Source of the DNA: Candidatus Limnocylindrus sp. | GTDB taxonomy: Bacteria > Chloroflexota > Limnocylindria > Limnocylindrales > Limnocylindraceae | Length of the DNA stretch: 64,000 bases | Assembly: GCA_040397175.1 (NCBI GenBank) | Contig: JBBAWM010000001.1 | Location: 25,976-89,975, forward strand | Direction of reading: 5' to 3' | Shown: piece after piece, positions 35,070-46,189 of the stretch | Layout: each line of letters starts with the position of its first letter | Numbering within the stretch: the first letter of the stretch is position 1 | Position numbers and translations under genes: made by a program | Notes under the pieces: model-generated | Database searches by the model: none | Told to the model about the DNA's origin: nothing | Seen by the model: only the letters and a program-made list of their open reading frames with translations

Positions 35070-36266
35070 ATGAAGGTCTTTAACAAGAAGGGCCTCAGCG
35101 CCCTTGCAGCAGTTGCGATTCTCGCAGCTGCCTGCGGTGGTTCAACCGGAGGCAAGACGCTGACGATCGGGATCAGCTTCCCGCTCAACGGCGCATCACT
35201 TGCGTCAGCGGGTCCTGCCCGTGACGGCGCGCTCCTTGCGATCAAGGAGGCTTCGATCGAGGGCTACACCCTTGCGTCGAAGGTTCTTGACCATGCCGTC
35301 GACGGCAAGAAGAACCCAGAGTTGGGTGCTGCGGACATGTTGACCTTCGTCGGTGACGAGACGGTCGTCGCAGTTGTTGGTCCGTTCAACTCGGCCGTTG
35401 CGCTGGCACAGATCCCAGTCTCGTCTGAGGCCGGGCTTCTTCAGTGCTCGCCATCGAACACGAACCCAGACCTGACGAAGGGCGATGCTGGCGCAGCCCT
35501 CCGCGGTGGTCGACCAGTCAACTACATCCGCCTTGCGACGACGGACGACCTTCAGGGTCCAGCCGTTGCCGTCTACGCCAAGGAGAATGGCGCAAAGAAG
35601 ATCTACATCCTCGACTCCACCGATGCTTACGGCAAGGGTGTGGCCGATGCGTTCCAGACCAAGTTCGAAGCTGACGGCGGAATGGTCGTTGGCCGACAGG
35701 GTCTTCCAGCCGGCACGACCGACTTCTCAGCTGTTGCGACAGCCGCGAAGGCAGCCAATGCTGACTCGATCTTCTACGGTGGTGTGACGTCAGACGGCGC
35801 TCCACAGTTCCGCAACGCGCTTGCCCAGGCGGGCCTTGGCGCACTGCCGTTCTACGGTGCCGACGGCATCTACGACGGCGATGGAGTGGGTTCATACATT
35901 GCGACCGCCGGAGAGAATGCTGCGAATAGCTTCTCTTCACAGGCCGCGATTGAGAGCATTCCTGACCGCGCAGCGTTCAACACCAAGTTCATGGCCGAGT
36001 ACGGTCATGATGCCGAGGGCTACGCTGCCGCCGGTTACGCCTGCGCGCAGATCATCATCGAGGGAATCAAGGCTGCCGTCGCCGGTGGCACTGTGACCCG
36101 CGATACGGTCCGCGAGGCGATCATTCACCCAGGCACCAAGTACGAGACGGTACTCGGGCCAGTGTCGTTCGACGAGGTTGGCGATACCTCCCAGCACATC
36201 ATCTCCCTGTACAAGGTTGAGGGTGGCAAGTGGGTGTTCGACAAGCAGATCGACTACGGCAAATAA
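35070..36266 (+). CDS. livK: Branched-chain amino acid ABC transporter substrate-binding lipoprotein
   Basis: Lipobox LAAAC; GPFNS, SPSNT.P.LT, D.LQG, YGKG; SD AGGAGG. Confidence 0.92.
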   Translation: MKVFNKKGLSALAAVAILAAACGGSTGGKTLTIGISFPLNGASLASAGPARDGALLAIKEASIEGYTLASKVLDHAVDGKKNPELGAADMLTFVGDETVVAVVGPFNSAVALAQIPVSSEAGLLQCSPSNTNPDLTKGDAGAALRGGRPVNYIRLATTDDLQGPAVAVYAKENGAKKIYILDSTDAYGKGVADAFQTKFEADGGMVVGRQGLPAGTTDFSAVATAAKAANADSIFYGGVTSDGAPQFRNALAQAGLGALPFYGADGIYDGDGVGSYIATAGENAANSFSSQAAIESIPDRAAFNTKFMAEYGHDAEGYAAAGYACAQIIIEGIKAAVAGGTVTRDTVREAIIHPGTKYETVLGPVSFDEVGDTSQHIISLYKVEGGKWVFDKQIDYGK

Positions 36267-37466: not shown

Positions 37467-38581
37467 GTGGGTTGCGCGCCGCGCTGCGCGACCGGTTTGC
37501 GCCGGTGCGCGCCTACTTCCGCCTCCACCGAAGCCTTGGCATCGTTGTTGGCGTGTTGCTCATCAGCATTGCCCTTCCGTTGATCACGCGCGTTCCACCA
37601 TTTGACGGCATTCAATCCACGAATGCGTGGGCGAATGCATTCACCAACGCGGCGATCTATGCAACGCTCGCGATGGGCCTCAACGTGGTGATTGGATTTG
37701 CCGGGCTCCTCGATCTTGGCTATGCGGCATTTTTCGCCCTTGGTGGCTACGCGTACGCATTCGTGGCCGCTCCATTCACGGGGATTCACCTACCGTTCTG
37801 GCCGATGCTGCTCGCTGGTGGGGTGGTGGGGGCAATCTTCGGCATCCTGCTCGGCGCGCCAACACTGCGACTGCGCGGTGATTACCTCGCCATCGTCACC
37901 CTTGGCTTCGGGGAGATCGTGCCGATCACCTTGATGAACTCCGATAAGTTCACCAACGGCGTCAACGGGATCAGCGGAATCGACAAGCCAAACATCCCTG
38001 GAATCTTGCAGTTCACGCTCATCAATCCATGGCCAATGTATGGACTAGTGATCGCGCTCTTCACGGTGATCATGATTATGATCTTCCGCCTTCAAGACTC
38101 GCGCCTCGGGCGAACCTGGGATGCAATTCGTGATGACGAACTCGCCGCAGAGTCTTCTGGCGTGAACATCGTCATCTCAAAGCTCCAAGCCTTTGCCGTA
38201 GGCGCCTCGATCGCCGGCATCGTTGGTGTCGTAAACGCCGCCAAGCTGACGATCGTGACACCAGACCAGTTCCGGTTCTCGGTCTCCATTAGCGTGCTCG
38301 CAGCCGTAGTACTTGGCGGCATGGGTAACACCATTGGCGTTGCAACCGGTGCGTTCATCATCTATCTGTTCCAGAGCATCTTGCTCAAGCAGCTCAATAC
38401 CCTGGTGGGGAACTTCAATATTCCCGTGCTCAGCGACATCGACTTCCTACAGTTCCAGTACGTGCTGTATGGCATCGTCCTTGTGCTGATGATGCTGAAG
38501 CGTCCGCAGGGCATCTTCCCCGCAGGTCGACGCATGCGTGAATTCGCCCCGCTGAAAATCGGGAAGCGAGGACTGAAGTGA
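37463..38581 (+). CDS. livM: BCAA ABC permease
   Basis: GLLDLGYAAF, LRLRGDYLAIVTLGFGEI. Confidence 0.93.
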   Translation: MSGLRAALRDRFAPVRAYFRLHRSLGIVVGVLLISIALPLITRVPPFDGIQSTNAWANAFTNAAIYATLAMGLNVVIGFAGLLDLGYAAFFALGGYAYAFVAAPFTGIHLPFWPMLLAGGVVGAIFGILLGAPTLRLRGDYLAIVTLGFGEIVPITLMNSDKFTNGVNGISGIDKPNIPGILQFTLINPWPMYGLVIALFTVIMIMIFRLQDSRLGRTWDAIRDDELAAESSGVNIVISKLQAFAVGASIAGIVGVVNAAKLTIVTPDQFRFSVSISVLAAVVLGGMGNTIGVATGAFIIYLFQSILLKQLNTLVGNFNIPVLSDIDFLQFQYVLYGIVLVLMMLKRPQGIFPAGRRMREFAPLKIGKRGLK

Positions 38582-39600
38582 GTGCAGCGAAGGGCGGACC
38601 AATGCTGAGGGCCCGTGGGGTCACCCGAAAGTTTGGCGGCCTCGTCGCCGTAAACGGTGTGGATTTTGAGATCCCGCGCGGCTCCATCAGCGCGATCATC
38701 GGGCCAAACGGGGCAGGAAAGACCACCTTCTTCAACGTGATCGCGGGAATCTACGCTCCAACGTCGGGCACCATCGAACTCGATGGAAAGCCGCTCATCT
38801 CCCCGCCGACGGGGTCGGGGCGCGAGCCGATCCTGCTCATCCTGCCAACGCTCCCATTCATTGGCCTCGCGGTTTACTTCCTGATGTCTGTTGGTGGCGA
38901 CACAGGCCTCGTGGAGGGGGTTGCATCTGCTGCCGCCGCCCTCCTTGGCTTTGTGGGGGCCCTGCTCCTGAACATCGTGCGACCAGCTTGGTACAATCGC
39001 CTCATCAAGCGCATCGGCGTAACGCGCCCAGCGCGCCCGAACGACATGGTGGTGGCTGGCCTGGCACGCACCTTCCAGAACATTCGCCTTTACAAGAGCC
39101 TGACCACGCTCGAGAACATCCTCGTTGGCATGCACGTGCACATGCACGGCAGCCTCCTTGGCGCACTCTTCATTACCAAATCGGTGCGCGAAGAGGAGGC
39201 GGCTGCCGAGCAGCGCGCGCGTGAGCTCCTTGCCTTCGTTGACCTTGCCGGTATGGAGAACGAGTTGGCGCGGAACCTGCCGTACGGCAAGCAGCGCCTT
39301 CTGGAGATCGCCCGCGCGATCGCCAGTCGTCCAAAGCTTCTCTTGCTTGACGAGCCCGCGGCTGGCATGAATCCAAAGGAGACCGAAGAGATGACCGCTC
39401 TGATCCGCCGCATTCGCGACAATCTCGACATTACGGTGCTGCTGATTGAGCACGACATGCGCGTGGTGATGGGCATCTCGGATCACATCACCGTGCTCGA
39501 CCACGGCGAGAAGATTGCCGAGGGGCTACCAAAAGAGATTCGCACGAACCCGAAGGTGATCGAGGCCTATCTCGGCCGCGGCGCCGCCGCGGGACACTGA
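38578..39600 (+). CDS. livG: BCAA ABC ATPase with an internal hydrophobic insert
   Basis: GPNGAGKTT, ARTFQ, LPYG, LLLDEPAAG, IEHDM, VIEAYLG. Confidence 0.92.
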   Translation: MSAAKGGPMLRARGVTRKFGGLVAVNGVDFEIPRGSISAIIGPNGAGKTTFFNVIAGIYAPTSGTIELDGKPLISPPTGSGREPILLILPTLPFIGLAVYFLMSVGGDTGLVEGVASAAAALLGFVGALLLNIVRPAWYNRLIKRIGVTRPARPNDMVVAGLARTFQNIRLYKSLTTLENILVGMHVHMHGSLLGALFITKSVREEEAAAEQRARELLAFVDLAGMENELARNLPYGKQRLLEIARAIASRPKLLLLDEPAAGMNPKETEEMTALIRRIRDNLDITVLLIEHDMRVVMGISDHITVLDHGEKIAEGLPKEIRTNPKVIEAYLGRGAAAGH

Positions 39601-39613
39601 GAGGAGTACGGCG

Positions 39614-40327
39614 ATGGCACCACTGCTTGAACTAAAAGATGTGCACACGTACTACGGCGCGGTCCATGCCCTACGCGGCGTCTCCCTGAAGGTCGAGGAG
39701 GGCGAGATCGTCACGCTGATCGGTTCCAACGGGGCTGGTAAGACCACGACACTGCGCACCATCTCTGGGCTCGAGCGCGCCCGTTCGGGGAGCATCACCC
39801 TCAATGGGAAGGCGATCGAGGCGGCGGCGCCGCACGAGATCGTAAAGCTTGGCGTTGGGCACAGCCCCGAGGGTCGCCGGGTGTTTGCCCGCATGTCGGT
39901 GCGCGAGAACCTCGAGATGGGCGCCTTCCTGCGCAAGTCTGGCCCCGACGTGCAGAAAGACTTCAAGAAGGTCTTTGACCTCTTCCCACGACTGAAGGAG
40001 CGAGAGAGCCAGGCCGCAGGCACCATGTCTGGCGGTGAGCAGCAGATGCTCGCAATTGGCCGCGCACTCATGGCGCAGCCAAAGATCCTGTTGCTCGACG
40101 AGCCTTCGATGGGCCTTGCGCCGATTCTGGTGGAGCAGATCTTCGACATCATCACCGAGATCAACTCACGCGGAACAGCGGTACTCCTCGTCGAGCAGAA
40201 CGCCATGATGGCGCTCGGAATCGCGAAGCGCGGCTACATTCTGCAGATTGGCGAGGTCACCCTCGAAGATAGCTGCGATAAGTTGGCCAAGAACCCGAAG
40301 GTGCGCGAAGCCTACCTCGGCGTCTAG
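39614..40327 (+). CDS. livF: BCAA ABC ATPase
   Basis: GSNGAGKTT, PEGRRVF, MSGGEQQM, LDEPSMGL, VEQN. Confidence 0.94.
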   Translation: MAPLLELKDVHTYYGAVHALRGVSLKVEEGEIVTLIGSNGAGKTTTLRTISGLERARSGSITLNGKAIEAAAPHEIVKLGVGHSPEGRRVFARMSVRENLEMGAFLRKSGPDVQKDFKKVFDLFPRLKERESQAAGTMSGGEQQMLAIGRALMAQPKILLLDEPSMGLAPILVEQIFDIITEINSRGTAVLLVEQNAMMALGIAKRGYILQIGEVTLEDSCDKLAKNPKVREAYLGV

Positions 40328-41595
40328 CCGGCGATCTTGCGCAGCGCGCGAAAGAGGCGCCGCCCGTCACTTCGATCGGCAATCTCTTTCGGCATCTGGC
40401 CCGCTGTTGACCCAAGTAGCCGTTGGTGCGCAGTGATCGCGTGAGCGAGCCCGGTCAAATGCCGCGTCGGCCTGGCACCGCGCTCCCACCAGAGGCCGTC
40501 GATTGCCAGCGAACCCGTCTCCTTGACGCGCCGCAGCTGAATGCGTCCGACGAGCGCATCTCCGGCGTGGATCGGCATCACGTACGGCCCATACACGCGG
40601 CGCTTTTCTGGGGTGTAAATCTCCCAGCGGTAGTGAAAGTTGTAGAGCGTCTCGAGGCGCTTGCGATCGTGGATGAGCGGGTCGAGTGGCGAGAGGAGCG
40701 TCACGGCATTCGGATCGGCGGCGACCGGGCGCGTGCCGGCGGTGGCGCGCATCGCCGCCTCAAGGGCGAAGCGCTCGCCGCCAGGAATACGCCATGGCCC
40801 GGCGAGACCCTCAATCTCAATCTCAAGCAGGGCACCGCGTTCGGTGAGGCGCCGCACCAGCTCCTTGCGCTTGAGTGGCCAGTCGGTCTGCACCCAGACG
40901 CCGTTGGCGGAGGCGAGTCCAAGGTCACGGTGCCGCGCCAAGAAGGTGTGTTCGACCTGCTCCTCTTCGCTGACGCGGCGCTCCAACACGTTGCGTGGGA
41001 TCAGTCGCTCGGCAAGGTCAAACCAGCGACGCGAGCCGTCGCGGCGCGCAAGGTGCAGTAGGCCCGCGAGCTGCAGCATTTCGAGGGCGGCGCGATAGGC
41101 GGGGGTCTGCCCCCACGACCACGCGACCAACTTCGAGGGACCGAAATCGGCGGCGCTGAGCGGTCCCTCCGCGCTGATGCGCGCCATCACGGTGTCAACC
41201 CAGGGCTTCAGCCGCTTGTAGGTTCCGTCGCGCCAGTAGCGCTCGCGACGCTTGTCGGCGGGGCGTCGGTAGAAGGGGAGTTCGCTTGTGGGCACAATCA
41301 CCAGCACCCCGTTGTACTGCTCGACCAGGGCACGGTGCGCCGGCACCTTGGCGTAGAGGAGCTCATCAACCCAGCGTGGCTCAAAGCCGTCGATACGGGC
41401 GTGGCAGACGATCTCGTGGCTTCGCCCCGCAAGGTCAACCGGGTCGAACTGCAGCGAGCCGAGCCGCTCAACAAGCGCCAGCACCGAGCCCTTGCTTGCT
41501 GGGAGCTGGCGCGGCGGAAGGAGCATATGGCGCTCGGCGAGGAAGCGGCGAGCCGCCGCCTTCGAGACGCGCAGGGGCGCGTCGCCCGCGCTCAT
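40324..41595 (-). CDS. YcaQ/AlkZ-family (HTH_42) crosslink-repair DNA glycosylase
   Basis: LQFDPV (QxD), LLSPLDPLIHDR, F.YRWEIYTP..RR.YG.Y. Confidence 0.88.
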   Translation of the reverse strand: MSAGDAPLRVSKAAARRFLAERHMLLPPRQLPASKGSVLALVERLGSLQFDPVDLAGRSHEIVCHARIDGFEPRWVDELLYAKVPAHRALVEQYNGVLVIVPTSELPFYRRPADKRRERYWRDGTYKRLKPWVDTVMARISAEGPLSAADFGPSKLVAWSWGQTPAYRAALEMLQLAGLLHLARRDGSRRWFDLAERLIPRNVLERRVSEEEQVEHTFLARHRDLGLASANGVWVQTDWPLKRKELVRRLTERGALLEIEIEGLAGPWRIPGGERFALEAAMRATAGTRPVAADPNAVTLLSPLDPLIHDRKRLETLYNFHYRWEIYTPEKRRVYGPYVMPIHAGDALVGRIQLRRVKETGSLAIDGLWWERGARPTRHLTGLAHAITAHQRLLGSTAGQMPKEIADRSDGRRLFRALRKIAG

Positions 41596-41596
41596 C

Positions 41597-42571
41597 TCAG
41601 TGGGACGCAGCTCCGCGCGCGATCGATCGATTTCGTGCCGTCACCATAATTGCAACACCGACAACAACCACGGCGCCACCGGCGATGAGTTGCGCCGAGA
41701 TTGGCTCACTCAAGATGAAACTCCCTGCTAGCACAGCGACCACCGGATTCACGTAGGCGTAGGTAGAGACGAGCCCGAATGGCGCAACGCGCAGGAGCCA
41801 GGTGTAGATGTTGTAGGCGATAAGGCTTCCGACGACCACGAGATAGCCGAGGGCGAAGATCACATCGCTCCCCAGGGCGCCAAACTGCACGCTCCCCCAC
41901 TCGCCGAGGGCGGTGGCGATGATGGCGCCACCGATAGAACCGGCCAGCATTTGAATTGCGACAGCCACCCGTGAATCAGCTGGTGTTGCGGCGCGGCGCT
42001 GGCTCCAGATGGAGCCGCCACCCCAGCTGAGCGGACTAAAAAGGATGCAGGCGAGGCCGAGTGGATCAAGGCCAGCATCACCCGCCTTGGGCGAGATCAG
42101 GATCGCAACGCCGACGATGCCGACGGCGATGCCAAGGATGCTGAGCGGCGCGATGCGGTCCTTGTAGATGACGCGACCAATGACGGCGACCCAGATCGGC
42201 AGGAGGGCAATGAGCAGGGCGGTGATGCCCGATGGAATCGTCTGCTCGCCGAACGAGGTCACGCCGAGCCCGCCCACGTTGAGGGCGAGTCCAACGATCG
42301 CCTGGTCGCGAATCTGTGCGCGAGTCAACGAGCGCAGTGCGTCACGAGCGAAGATGGCAACGAGGATGAGCATGGCGAGACCGGCACAGGCGAAGCGAAT
42401 GGCCACCATCGCAAATGGCGGGAGCGCTACCCCTTGGTCCGGATCAACCACCACGCGAATGGCCAGATAGGTGGTGCCCCAAATGATGTAGATCGCGAGC
42501 ATCGCTAGGGCGATCGCAATGGGCGCGGCAGCCGTAAGCCGGGGGGCCGCCTTTGAAATTGTTTTTGCCAT
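41597..42571 (-). CDS. EamA/DMT transporter (YedA-like)
   Basis: IWGTTYLAIR, STYAYVNPVVAV. Confidence 0.9.
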   Translation of the reverse strand: MAKTISKAAPRLTAAAPIAIALAMLAIYIIWGTTYLAIRVVVDPDQGVALPPFAMVAIRFACAGLAMLILVAIFARDALRSLTRAQIRDQAIVGLALNVGGLGVTSFGEQTIPSGITALLIALLPIWVAVIGRVIYKDRIAPLSILGIAVGIVGVAILISPKAGDAGLDPLGLACILFSPLSWGGGSIWSQRRAATPADSRVAVAIQMLAGSIGGAIIATALGEWGSVQFGALGSDVIFALGYLVVVGSLIAYNIYTWLLRVAPFGLVSTYAYVNPVVAVLAGSFILSEPISAQLIAGGAVVVVGVAIMVTARNRSIARGAASH

Positions 42572-42581
42572 AGCGCTGATG

Positions 42582-43433
42582 CTAGCCGAGAGCGATCAGA
42601 ACCGCGCCTGCCACGATCGCAGTGGCGCCCGAGGCGCGCAGTGCGATCTGTGCTGCGCTGCTCGTCTCGCGCGCGCGAAGCAGCCCCCACCCCGAAACGA
42701 GCAAGATGGCGGATTCACGCAGCGGTACCACTACCGAGAGGGGCGCTACGGCGAAGGCGGCCATCACAAGAAGATGTCCACCGATGATCAGGGAGCCGGT
42801 GAGGGCGAGGTTTGGCGTGGTTTTCCACACAAGTCCGCGGCGCTGGGCGACGACGAGGTAGAGCAGGCCGGTGACTCCCCAGGTGATGCCAAGGAAGGGG
42901 AGCGGTCCAGCATCCAGCACACCGAGGCGCTCGATTGCAGAGCCACCCGCAGAGAGCACACCGGCCGCAATCGCAAAGAGCAGTGCCGTGCCCGAAATTC
43001 CCTCTCGTAGCCCCTGCCATGGCGGACGAAGTGCGATAAGCCCAACGATGATGAGCACCACCCCCCACGGCTGAGAGCCGATCAGCTGCTCACTAAGGAG
43101 GAGCGTGCCGATCGCAACGGCGACGAGCGGATTGATGCCGCGAACTATGGGATAGACGACGGAGATTGGTGCGCCCGCGTACGCCCGGGCAAGGCTCATG
43201 AAGTAGGCAAGCTCGGCGGCCCCAGCGGCGACGCCAAGCGCAGCTGCGAATGGCGTAACGTGCACGAGACCGACGCCCCACGCAGCAAGCACGAGCGCAC
43301 CCGCGATCAGACCTGGCGTGATGACGGCAAGGTTTGCCGCTGTCTCGGGGTCGCCCGTGCCCTTCAGTCGAATGTTCCACGCTGCGTGGGCGGCGGCCGA
43401 GCCGGCAATGAAGAGCAGCGTAGCAATTGGCAT
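42582..43433 (-). CDS. EamA/DMT transporter
   Basis: HAAWN, AY...SVVYPIVRG, PLRES; leaderless TACGAT-N6-ATG at 43433. Confidence 0.87.
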   Translation of the reverse strand: MPIATLLFIAGSAAAHAAWNIRLKGTGDPETAANLAVITPGLIAGALVLAAWGVGLVHVTPFAAALGVAAGAAELAYFMSLARAYAGAPISVVYPIVRGINPLVAVAIGTLLLSEQLIGSQPWGVVLIIVGLIALRPPWQGLREGISGTALLFAIAAGVLSAGGSAIERLGVLDAGPLPFLGITWGVTGLLYLVVAQRRGLVWKTTPNLALTGSLIIGGHLLVMAAFAVAPLSVVVPLRESAILLVSGWGLLRARETSSAAQIALRASGATAIVAGAVLIALG

Positions 43434-43474
43434 CTGCTCATCGTAGGTGCTCGACTCTCGCGTATCCTTCCACG

Positions 43475-44410
43475 ATGCGTTCGAGTCGGCTTCCGTGGAT
43501 TCTGATGGTCGTCGTTTCGGCGATCGGCTATGGATCGGGCTCGCTCTTTGCAAAGGCGATCTACACAACGAGCTTCGATTGGCTTGACCTGCTCGTGTGG
43601 CGTCACCTACTGGCCGCGCTCATCCTTGGGGTCATCGTGCTGGCGCTCCCAGCCGGCCGCGCAGCGCTCCGTGGCCTCACCCGGGAGCGCGCTCTTCGCT
43701 CCTTTGCGATTGGCCTCTTCTTCACCGCGAACGCCGCCACCTACTTCGGTAGCCTGACCTGGATCGACGCCTCGCTCGCCGGCCTCATGACCTATGCCTT
43801 CCCCGCCATCGTCGCCGTGCTCTCCATCTTCTTTGCGCATGCGCCGTCGGGCCCGCGACCCTGGATCGCCCTAGCCATCGCCACCACCGGCGTCGTCCTG
43901 GGCGTGGGAGGGATCCCCGATGCCAAAGAGCCGGCGCTGATCGGCCTCGTGCTCGGCGTCGCCTCACCGATCATCTACAGCTGCTACATCATCTTTGCCG
44001 CTCGCTTGGGAGGGGAGACGAAGAGTGGCACCGGCGCCTCGGGCGGTGGCGGCACCTCACCACTCGCCGCCGTCCCGCTGAGCCTGTTGGGCACCGCGGT
44101 CGGGATGCTCCTGCTGCGCGCTGCCCTCGGCCGGACGTTGCTGCCCACCCCGATCCCCGACGGCGCGCTCCTGCCGATTATTGGGGTCGCCACCATTGCG
44201 GGAATCATTCCGATCGGTGCCTTCTATATAGGAGCCCAGCGACTCGGCGCAGCGCGCGCGGCGCTGATCAGCACCGTGGAGCCGATCTTCACGATCGTGG
44301 CGGCGGGCTACCTCTTTAGCGAGAGCCTCGCCCCGCTCCAGCTCGTGGGGGGCGCACTCATCCTTGGCGCGGTGCTGGTGGCTGAGTGGGGTGCTATTCG
44401 CTCGAGGTAG
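43475..44410 (+). CDS. EamA/DMT transporter
   Basis: About 10 TM helices, ISTVEP; leaderless TATCCT-N6-ATG at 43475. Confidence 0.88.
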   Translation: MRSSRLPWILMVVVSAIGYGSGSLFAKAIYTTSFDWLDLLVWRHLLAALILGVIVLALPAGRAALRGLTRERALRSFAIGLFFTANAATYFGSLTWIDASLAGLMTYAFPAIVAVLSIFFAHAPSGPRPWIALAIATTGVVLGVGGIPDAKEPALIGLVLGVASPIIYSCYIIFAARLGGETKSGTGASGGGGTSPLAAVPLSLLGTAVGMLLLRAALGRTLLPTPIPDGALLPIIGVATIAGIIPIGAFYIGAQRLGAARAALISTVEPIFTIVAAGYLFSESLAPLQLVGGALILGAVLVAEWGAIRSR

Positions 44411-44587: not shown

Positions 44588-46189
44588 GTGCGAATCACGA
44601 AGCTCGTGTTTGTGGGCTTGGCGCTCACACTCTTCACAGGACTTGGTGGATCCAATGTCCGCGCATCGGTCACCCCAATTATTGACGTGGTTCCGGCCGC
44701 TGGCAAGATTGAGGGATCAGGCGCAACCTTCCCACTCAGCCAGTATCGAGATTGGTTCTCGACCTTCACCGACATTAACCGCGATGTCGCGTGCGAAAGC
44801 ACCTCCGACACCGACGGCGACAACGAACTTGCTGATTGCTCGAATCCAGATAACAACATCAAGCAGTTTGATCCAGGTAATTATGTCGATGCGTCAGGCA
44901 AGGGTGGCCTAGTACTTGGCTACACCGGCGTCGGGTCGGGCACTGGCAAGAAGAACTTCTATGGTTCCTCATGCCGCAAGGACACCCAGATGTTCTCTGG
45001 TACCGACTCGCTCTTGAGCACGGAAAACTACAACATGATTGTGAGCGGTTCGCATAACAGCGTGAATGCCGGCTGCAGCACCGCTGGCTCATCGCCAATT
45101 GGCCTGAACGGCTACATCATGGTTCCAGCAACCGCTGGCGCCATTTCGTTGGTTTACAACATTCCAGGCCTGCTTCAGTACACTTCAACTGCGAGGACGA
45201 AGACCACTGCAGCTAGCCTGAACCTTGATGGCGCCACGGTGTGCGACATCTACACGGGCAAGATCAAGAAGTGGGACGATGCAAAGATCAAGGCCCTCAA
45301 CCCACTCGTGAAGACGAGCGGCACGGGTTCGCTGCCAAACCAGAACATCATCACCGTTGCTCGAGCTGAGAGCTCGGGAACCACGTTCATCTTTAGTACG
45401 TACCTCGCAAAGGCAAACGACAATGCCACCATGCGCCAGTGCGGCTTCAACACCGCATTCGGTAAGGCTGGCGTGGCTGGTCGAACTTTCACGACGAAGG
45501 AAGACGCAACTGCTATCACTCACGTCGATGGGGATCTCATCCCACAGGAAGAGACCCTTGGTGGCAAGTTCAACGAGCTCCGCAAGTTGAACAACGTCGT
45601 GGGTGGCGTCGCTACCCCTAACCCAATCACTGGTAAGGCAGCGAACGGTGGAATCGCGACCTATGTGTCAGCGACCCCATACACGTTCGGCTACGTCGAG
45701 CTTTCATACCAGGTGAAGTACAACCTGAAGGCAGCAAAGCTTCGCACGCTGACCGACGCGGCCGGCAGCAAGGCTAACTACATTGCTCCGTCGGTGGCCG
45801 GGACCACCGCTGCACTCAACGTTGCGTACGGAACCACCGCCAAGGTCACCGCGTCAAAGGTTATCAAGCCACCGACGACGGCGATCAGCGCTGGTGGGTT
45901 CATTCACCCCGTGTATCAGACCGGCCTCACCTCGTACCCAATCGTGGGTGTGACCTGGATCCTCACCTATACGGAGTGGGGATCGGGCGCAAACAAGAAC
46001 GGTGCGGACACCTCCATGACCAAGGGTCAGGTTCAGGGGCTCGTAGCCTTCCTGGACTGGATCCTCGATGAGGGTCAGGCTTCGTACAATCTGTACCAGG
46101 GGTACGCCCCACTCCCAGCGGCTCTGCGCACGAGGGCGCTTGCCGAGTTGATCACGATTCGCTACGACGGACAGCGCGTCCGACCGTAA
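44588..46189 (+). CDS. pstS: Phosphate ABC transporter substrate-binding protein, enlarged
   Basis: GSGATFP, GSG.G, F.GTD, R..SSGTT..F, GYVE, YPI; first gene of pstSCAB. Confidence 0.88.
   Translation: MRITKLVFVGLALTLFTGLGGSNVRASVTPIIDVVPAAGKIEGSGATFPLSQYRDWFSTFTDINRDVACESTSDTDGDNELADCSNPDNNIKQFDPGNYVDASGKGGLVLGYTGVGSGTGKKNFYGSSCRKDTQMFSGTDSLLSTENYNMIVSGSHNSVNAGCSTAGSSPIGLNGYIMVPATAGAISLVYNIPGLLQYTSTARTKTTAASLNLDGATVCDIYTGKIKKWDDAKIKALNPLVKTSGTGSLPNQNIITVARAESSGTTFIFSTYLAKANDNATMRQCGFNTAFGKAGVAGRTFTTKEDATAITHVDGDLIPQEETLGGKFNELRKLNNVVGGVATPNPITGKAANGGIATYVSATPYTFGYVELSYQVKYNLKAAKLRTLTDAAGSKANYIAPSVAGTTAALNVAYGTTAKVTASKVIKPPTTAISAGGFIHPVYQTGLTSYPIVGVTWILTYTEWGSGANKNGADTSMTKGQVQGLVAFLDWILDEGQASYNLYQGYAPLPAALRTRALAELITIRYDGQRVRP

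Follow-up and report, generated by a model that had tools for sequence, protein, structure and literature searches.

Results

A predicted membrane hairpin is nested in the LivG ATPase of a Limnocylindrus liv operon

The livG gene of the window (the whole stretch of DNA analyzed here, 64,000 nucleotides from a Candidatus Limnocylindrus contig) encodes an ABC ATPase whose nucleotide-binding domain (NBD) is interrupted by an in-frame insert of 76 residues, predicted to form a transmembrane hairpin. This nested insert is real, conserved and apparently undescribed. Canonical LivG is a soluble subunit of about 255 residues, and the familiar membrane-attached ABC ATPases are end-to-end fusions (e.g. 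LivM-LivG). With 340 residues and two predicted membrane helices, the LivG of the window departs from the soluble form. Its gene lies in a complete liv operon with the order livK-livH-livM-livG-livF, and the same order was found in the relatives compared.

35070..36266, forward strand: substrate-binding protein of the livK type; lipoprotein-like signal (LAACG); PF13458
36453..37466, forward strand: livH permease, full length; PF02653, NF008011
37463..38581, forward strand: livM permease with a complete core and a single hydrophobic helix at its N terminus; fold predicted to be that of a type II importer
38578..39600, forward strand: livG, ABC ATPase interrupted by a hydrophobic hairpin, 340 aa; NF008449, PF00005, PF12399
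39614..40327, forward strand: livF, normal soluble partner ATPase without the insert

The nearest solved relatives of the binding protein are Leu/Ile/Val- and amino-acid-binding proteins, and an amino acid is the likely substrate of the importer. This is the sole liv operon found in the source genome (1.38 Mb, 91.5% complete); no second copy of the insert was found in that genome and no regulatory partner gene in the operon. Passages of a study of Limnocylindria give the Limnocylindraceae a median of 1.307 Mb and 63.15% GC, and the words 'branched-chain' and 'transmembrane' are absent from these passages (PMC13212565). The first-pass annotation had described LivF as normal, and alignment agrees: the insert is absent from LivF of the window and from LivF of the relatives compared. 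Each operon carries a single copy of the insert, in LivG only. Downstream (40324-44410), an AlkZ-like DNA glycosylase gene on the opposite strand overlaps the livF stop and is followed by three EamA-like transporter genes. Further on (44588-46189) lies a gene for a 533-aa PstS-like phosphate-binding protein (PBP_like_2, residues 40-493), upstream of pstC/pstA-like genes; the protein is long for its family, with apparent insertions.

The livG reading frame is open, its GTG start giving 340 aa and an alternative ATG start at 38602 giving 332 aa. Alignment to the MJ1267 LivG falls into two pieces (query 9-74 on chain 7-72, query 153-333 on chain 75-256), and a profile search gives the same two-piece alignment. 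The spacing from Walker A to RTFQ is 122 in the window LivG versus 46 in most canonical LivG, so the net insert amounts to 76 aa, in good agreement with the roughly 75 aa claimed by the first-pass annotation. It is sited between the strand that follows Walker A and the helix that precedes the Q-loop. Its boundary is uncertain by about 2 residues, and a placement at 38800-39027 fits equally well as the one given below.

38701..38724, forward strand: Walker A of LivG (GPNGAGKT, residues 42-49), 5' of the insert
38803..39030, forward strand: net insert of 76 aa, residues ~76-151, missing in canonical LivG
38824..38826, forward strand: E83, invariant acidic residue (33/33), predicted cytoplasmic start of helix 1
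38830..38889, forward strand: predicted transmembrane helix 1 (TM1), residues 85-104; charge-free columns, AlphaFold2 helix
38920..38979, forward strand: predicted transmembrane helix 2 (TM2), residues 115-134, preceded by a short outer loop rich in Gly; charge-free columns, AlphaFold2 helix
38980..39018, forward strand: residues 135-147, with the RPxWY motif; basic amphipathic helix, likely at the membrane interface; conservation, AlphaFold2 helix
39076..39078, forward strand: Q-loop glutamine Q167, 16 residues past the insert end

The catalytic machinery around the insert is intact, as had been noted for Walker A/B, the Q-loop and the H-loop. Across an alignment of 27 homologues no variation was seen in Walker A (42-49), Q167, Walker B (D258-E259) or H292, and the alignment columns of the D-loop and signature are likewise preserved. 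The LPYG signature is the usual LivG form; all eight of the commonest signatures in 86 canonical rows are LPYG, LSYG or LAYG. NF008449 (LivG) is the top NCBIfam match (4.7e-87), with 291.5 bits in two stretches against an equivalog cut-off of 362 bits. This shortfall reflects distance from the model and not the insert alone, because the normal LivF, LivH and LivM of the operon also score below their cut-offs. PF00005 was matched as well, and the PF12399 match (46.2 bits) exceeds its cut-off.

Anatomy and predicted topology of the insert

Two hydrophobic stretches followed by the segment WYNRLIKRIG had been described in the insert, and all of these are present in the open frame 38578-39600. No Asp, Glu, Lys or Arg occurs over alignment positions 76-95 (TM1) or 108-126 (TM2) in any of 33 homologues. 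Lys plus Arg averages 2.9 before TM1, 0.06 between the two segments and 5.0 after TM2, and the outer loop lacks both residues in 31 of the 33. Such a positive-inside pattern would be expected if both ends of the insert remain with the cytoplasmic ATPase. The peak 19-residue Kyte-Doolittle mean across 29 insert-bearing proteins has a median of 2.33 and a minimum of 1.67 for TM1 and a median of 2.87 and a minimum of 2.04 for TM2. The highest such mean in 178 LivG cores from which the insert had been removed is 1.73, so that only the weakest TM1 (1/29) scores under the best core stretch.

AlphaFold2, run with a 27-row alignment, returned a model with a mean pLDDT of 85 and a pTM of 0.78 (pLDDT 71-86 across the insert). 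Two long helices of 25-27 residues each (model positions 72-96 and 100-126), separated by a three-residue break, are followed by a short one (129-137). The remainder superposes on ABC ATPases (1g9x: Z 28.2, rmsd 2.7, 233 aligned), at most 243 of the 332 residues of the model being covered; the structure search is uninformative on the fold of the hairpin because it is dominated by the NBD. Searched alone, the insert matched no Pfam family at E<=1 and matched PDB entries only at E>=0.2; residues 62-147 of the homologue P0009 returned no usable match in the ESM Atlas, an uninformative result. Hydropathy, charge pattern and the AlphaFold2 model agree in predicting two bilayer-spanning helices with an N-in/C-in topology. 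The membrane-anchored NBD proposed by the first-pass annotation is thereby supported as a prediction.

Conservation is concentrated at the base of the hairpin. E83, R135, P136 and Y139 are identical in 33/33 sequences and W138 in 30/33, and mean pairwise column identity is 0.53 in the base helix versus 0.28 in TM1, 0.34 in TM2 and 0.24 in the outer loop. The 17 hydrophobic segments compared in LivH and LivM of the same genomes show an identity of 0.62-0.90 (11 segments) or 0.37-0.51 (the other 6); the helix bodies and loop of the insert thus lie below all 17. The helices do have a conserved-looking face (e.g. A121, L122, L129, L130). The segment after TM2 had been called a basic amphipathic one. 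It is basic, and helical in the AlphaFold2 model, but its amphipathicity is only suggestive, because 9% of shuffles reach its hydrophobic moment of 0.68.

Independent assemblies, selection and distribution

Assembled contigs rather than raw reads were compared over 38500-39700 from four sequencing runs, one of which (X2) was left out as possibly being the source run. The remaining three runs all come from other studies; their contigs extend across the insert and its two junctions and show substitutions but no indels, and one contig record spans 38500-39639 unbroken with 25 substitutions and no gap. The insert is therefore not the assembly artefact against which the first-pass annotation had cautioned. 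A single-contig protein (P0004) in which a TRAP DctQ domain is joined to an insert-type LivG lacking the Walker A start is probably a chimeric assembly.

The insert is under purifying selection. Nei-Gojobori dN/dS among 11 close congeners is 0.058 for the insert and 0.049 for the core. When all 21 gap-free congeners are included the values are 0.25 and 0.12, about a twofold difference, with synonymous sites near saturation. These values come from pooled pairs, which are not independent.

The insert is present in 23 of 24 congeneric genomes. A full-length livG copy with the identical spacing of 122 occurs in 21 of the 24, one further genome (G012) has a divergent copy with a spacing of 117, and another (G001) matches over residues 2-169, spanning the insert. 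No LivG match was found in the remaining congener (G008, 82% complete). The insert form also occurs in 11/16 genomes of the sister family, and a named Limnocylindrales record (L054) has the same insert type. A search with the window insert matched 22 of 401 Chloroflexota genomes, a sample taken across the phylum, all in three families of one class, likely Limnocylindria; it was not found in any other class among these 401. A second insert used as query matched 52 of 201 genomes of the class, including one flagged as unpublished (G463), on which no conclusion rests. By family these matches are f1 6/6, f2 36/61, f3 9/66, f4 0/66 and f83 0/1, together with the source genome itself. Insert-free LivG paralogues (L162-L168) occur in the same order, and some genomes carry these additionally or exclusively.

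A second, divergent insert-bearing liv operon exists in the genus, in G011 (L138, L160) and G012 (L161), with a LivG about 56% identical. G011 holds both types of insert-bearing operon, and the binding-protein match of L160 and L161 ends at residue 222. At one further locus (G551:C1:247068-247377) an insert-bearing livG was matched in two frames, apparently through a frameshift or a sequencing error.

The permeases and the source of the insert

Permeases were compared at loci with parsable livH and livM, other loci being dropped. In each of the 32 insert operons the LivH and LivM cores are of normal full length and the N terminus of LivM carries exactly one hydrophobic segment. In 32 canonical operons the number of such segments ranges from 0 to 8 and is 0-1 in 14. 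Given these lengths and segment counts, the insert is not obviously replacing lost helices. Strict compensation for missing permease helices is unsupported, the cores being full length and 14/32 canonical operons having 0-1 segments and no insert. A derivation of the insert from LivH or LivM of the same operon, or from LivM N-terminal extensions, was also considered and is rejected for now, with an hhalign probability below 2%. No relative of LivH or LivM was found in the PDB by sequence; a model of LivM (pLDDT 70) matches type II importer permeases (HmuU, 4g1u_B: Z 15.7, rmsd 4.6, 241 aligned). Seven insert-free operons (L162, L163, L068, L077, L094, L102, L103) have a LivM N-terminal extension of ~275-300 residues with 5-7 hydrophobic segments; this extension is apparently repeated internally.

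Position of the insert relative to the coupling groove

The mapping was made through a canonical LivG (L059), whose alignment to LptB is free of gaps over the insertion segment. Counted from the Q-loop, P154/N155 of the window LivG correspond to L72/H73 of LptB and Y172 to F90, and the insert ends 2-3 residues ahead of P154/N155. According to passages of one study, LptB L72, H73 and F90 cross-link in vivo in a groove at the membrane interface, and D64 and R77 give no cross-link and face the cytoplasm (PMC5082905). Passages of another describe the coupling helices of LptF/G as contacting L72, H73, R77, Y82 and F90 among others (PMC5548808). Because the nearby D64 and R77 are described as facing the cytoplasm (PMC5082905), the insertion site would be at the rim of the groove rather than inside it. 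The mapping to L72/H73 supports the earlier claim of a location next to the coupling interface: the insert would exit the fold at the groove rim, where a membrane hairpin is geometrically plausible by analogy with LptB, the permease fold of LptB2FG being a different one.

Other inserts at the same site

A set of 193 LivG-type proteins comprised 109 canonical forms, 74 with an insert at this site (71 of them with at least one hydrophobic segment) and 10 without the motifs. The set was enriched by the queries used, and a scan of contigs with core motifs drew on the matches listed; neither amounts to a census. A Planctomycetota type (e.g. L096:5960-7255, L173-L182) with named members in that phylum has two hydrophobic helices around ~30 to >300 residues. 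Its sequences group in a single clade (32 rows, support 92, FastTree; 8 rows, support 97, IQ-TREE), and it occurs in 10 of the best 30 loci from 201 Planctomycetota genomes. A Deltaproteobacteria type, so named after a cluster member (P0165, P0113), has 3-4 hydrophobic segments, and both types have basic C-terminal flanks. A conserved soluble insert of ~24 residues, mostly in Clostridia (L056-L058, L062-L064 and others), forms one clade of 25 rows. Singleton inserts were seen in P0091, P0140, P0147 and P0174, all again at this site; P0091 is a 726-aa LivM-LivG fusion, and its ATPase portion is likewise interrupted there by a hydrophobic insert.

The three hydrophobic types showed no profile similarity when compared with each other, and they stand apart in a FastTree tree of LivG cores. 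A quick IQ-TREE run splits the window lineage in two, with a single clade not rejected (AU p 0.76). AU tests, made on 48 of 178 rows with the insert removed, gave p values for one clade of 0.64 with the Planctomycetota type added, 0.31 with the Deltaproteobacteria type added and 0.07 for all 20 hydrophobic-insert rows; the constrained tree outscored the free quick search for the lineage alone and for the lineage plus the Planctomycetota type. The dissimilarity of the inserts suggests that the hydrophobic forms had separate origins, and a common origin is not rejected by the AU tests. A short Planctomycetota form matched a long LivM N-terminal extension in one of 16 comparisons (hhalign probability 13%, E 0.002), a weak match that may be treated as a lead for the origin of the Planctomycetota-type insert.

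Discussion

We lean, by a modest degree, towards the hairpin being a peripheral membrane tether and brace that holds LivG against LivH/LivM. The hairpin would span the membrane at the lipid-facing periphery of the transporter with its helix bodies facing mostly lipid, both of its ends in the cytoplasm and a loop of 8-10 residues outside. At the inner membrane surface, next to the groove in which the coupling helix of the permease docks, the invariant base (E83, R135-P136-W138-Y139, together with the basic helix) would fix the angle of the hairpin to the RecA-like lobe. The transport cycle would be the ordinary one, in which the binding protein delivers the amino acid, LivG and LivF dimerize on ATP, and LivH/LivM switch access. 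LivG would thus be an integral membrane subunit, which would favor assembly and retention of the LivG-permease pair and add no new transport step. A peripheral tether or brace is preferred to a part of the pore because the helix bodies vary like the least conserved permease helices while the base is nearly invariant; low helix conservation in itself favors a lipid-exposed, peripheral position. The tether reading is weakened because many canonical LivG work unanchored, including the insert-free paralogues L162-L168, because the conserved-looking helix face could contact the permease and not only the partner helix, and because dN/dS over the 21 congeners is higher in the insert than in the core (at near-saturated synonymous sites). 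Any functional gain from tethering is likely to be modest.

The hairpin might instead be a structural part of the permease, docked on LivM/LivH, replacing accessory LivM N-terminal helices and needed for assembly. The single LivM segment in all 32 insert operons is consistent with this, since the nearest canonical rows in the FastTree tree (L059, L084, L076, L085) have 3, 3, 3 and 2, and one LivM segment plus two insert helices would total three. However, this sister relation is weak and was altered in the IQ-TREE run, and 14/32 canonical operons manage with 0-1 segments and no insert. The helix bodies are also poorly conserved, and hhalign relates the insert neither to LivM N-extensions nor to its own LivH/LivM (probability <2%). 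We consider this alternative doubtful.

A regulatory lever, which would tune ATPase coupling by conveying to the coupling groove what state the bilayer or an outside partner is in, draws on the exit of the insert beside that groove and on the Planctomycetota type, whose ~30 to >300 residues between the helices would lie outside the membrane. It would be more plausible for that type, with its outer domains. Here the outer loop has only ~8-10 residues and is the least conserved part of the insert (identity 0.24), the two insert types share no profile similarity, and the operon holds no regulatory partner gene, all of which makes such a lever decidedly unlikely in the window lineage. Less probable still are helices that do not span the membrane, either as a re-entrant or surface-bound hairpin in the inner leaflet or as a hydrophobic subdomain packed on the ATPase. 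TM1 is Pro-rich, TM2 of the window is Ala/Gly-rich and one of the 29 TM1 segments scores under the best core stretch, but the AlphaFold2 helices are 25-27 residues each, both segments are charge-free in 33 sequences and the loop is without Lys/Arg in 31/33. It is scarcely credible that the insert arose through faulty assembly or is carried along neutrally: P0004 illustrates that chimeric assemblies of livG can arise and nothing else was found in support of this reading, independent contigs without indels refute the artefact, and recurrence in 23/24 congeners and 52/201 class genomes with a dN/dS of 0.058 argues against the rest.

ABC NBDs are treated as soluble modules whose membrane contact comes only via the permease or an end-to-end fusion. 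Because membrane helices are predicted to interrupt the conserved NBD here, that domain would have to fold around a bilayer-inserted segment, and the finding marks a place in the ABC fold that faces the membrane and tolerates insertions. A bolder idea, which we hold to be unlikely, is that the loop before the LivG coupling-groove helix is a port that several bacterial lineages independently threaded with membrane helices (and, in Planctomycetota, whole outer domains) and that regulates amino-acid uptake. If this were true, transmembrane ATPases would give the outside face or the bilayer a direct connection to the coupling site, a control route not known for ABC importers. Since a single liv operon was found in the source genome, this freshwater lineage likely uses the insert-type design for such uptake. 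A full-text literature search (listings and the starts of abstracts) brought up no account of membrane helices inside LivG or another importer NBD, no solved-structure counterpart was found, and the database names of the insert-bearing proteins are generic. A PDB structure of the permease was not found, and the natively tethered LivG may be of use in structural work on an importer of the HAAT family.

The ATPases of the type II importers HmuUV, 2nq2, PsaBC and FhuCDB, whose permease fold is matched by the LivM model, align to the LivG model over 222-240 residues and have no counterpart of the hairpin. LptB of LptB2FG has the homologous NBD segment, the insert of the window LivG ending just before the L72/H73 equivalents, but LptB is a soluble protein, lacks the insert and serves a permease of another fold. 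The canonical HAAT-family LivG (MJ1267; PDB 1G6H, 1GAJ, 1G9X) shares the operon order, ABC motifs, signature, PF12399 tail and fold; the window LivG differs in its 76 extra residues at MJ1267 position ~73-74, with their predicted membrane hairpin and interfacial helix. Covalent attachment of the ATPase to the membrane is likewise seen in end-to-end LivM-LivG (L126, L127 and P0132 in our set), LivG-LivF and exporter-type TMD-NBD fusions. The window insert is not a permease fusion of the LivM-LivG kind, being internal and having neither a Pfam match nor profile similarity to LivH, LivM or the LivM N-extensions. In the fusions the membrane part flanks an uninterrupted NBD, whereas in the window LivG it sits inside that domain, between Walker A and the Q-loop.
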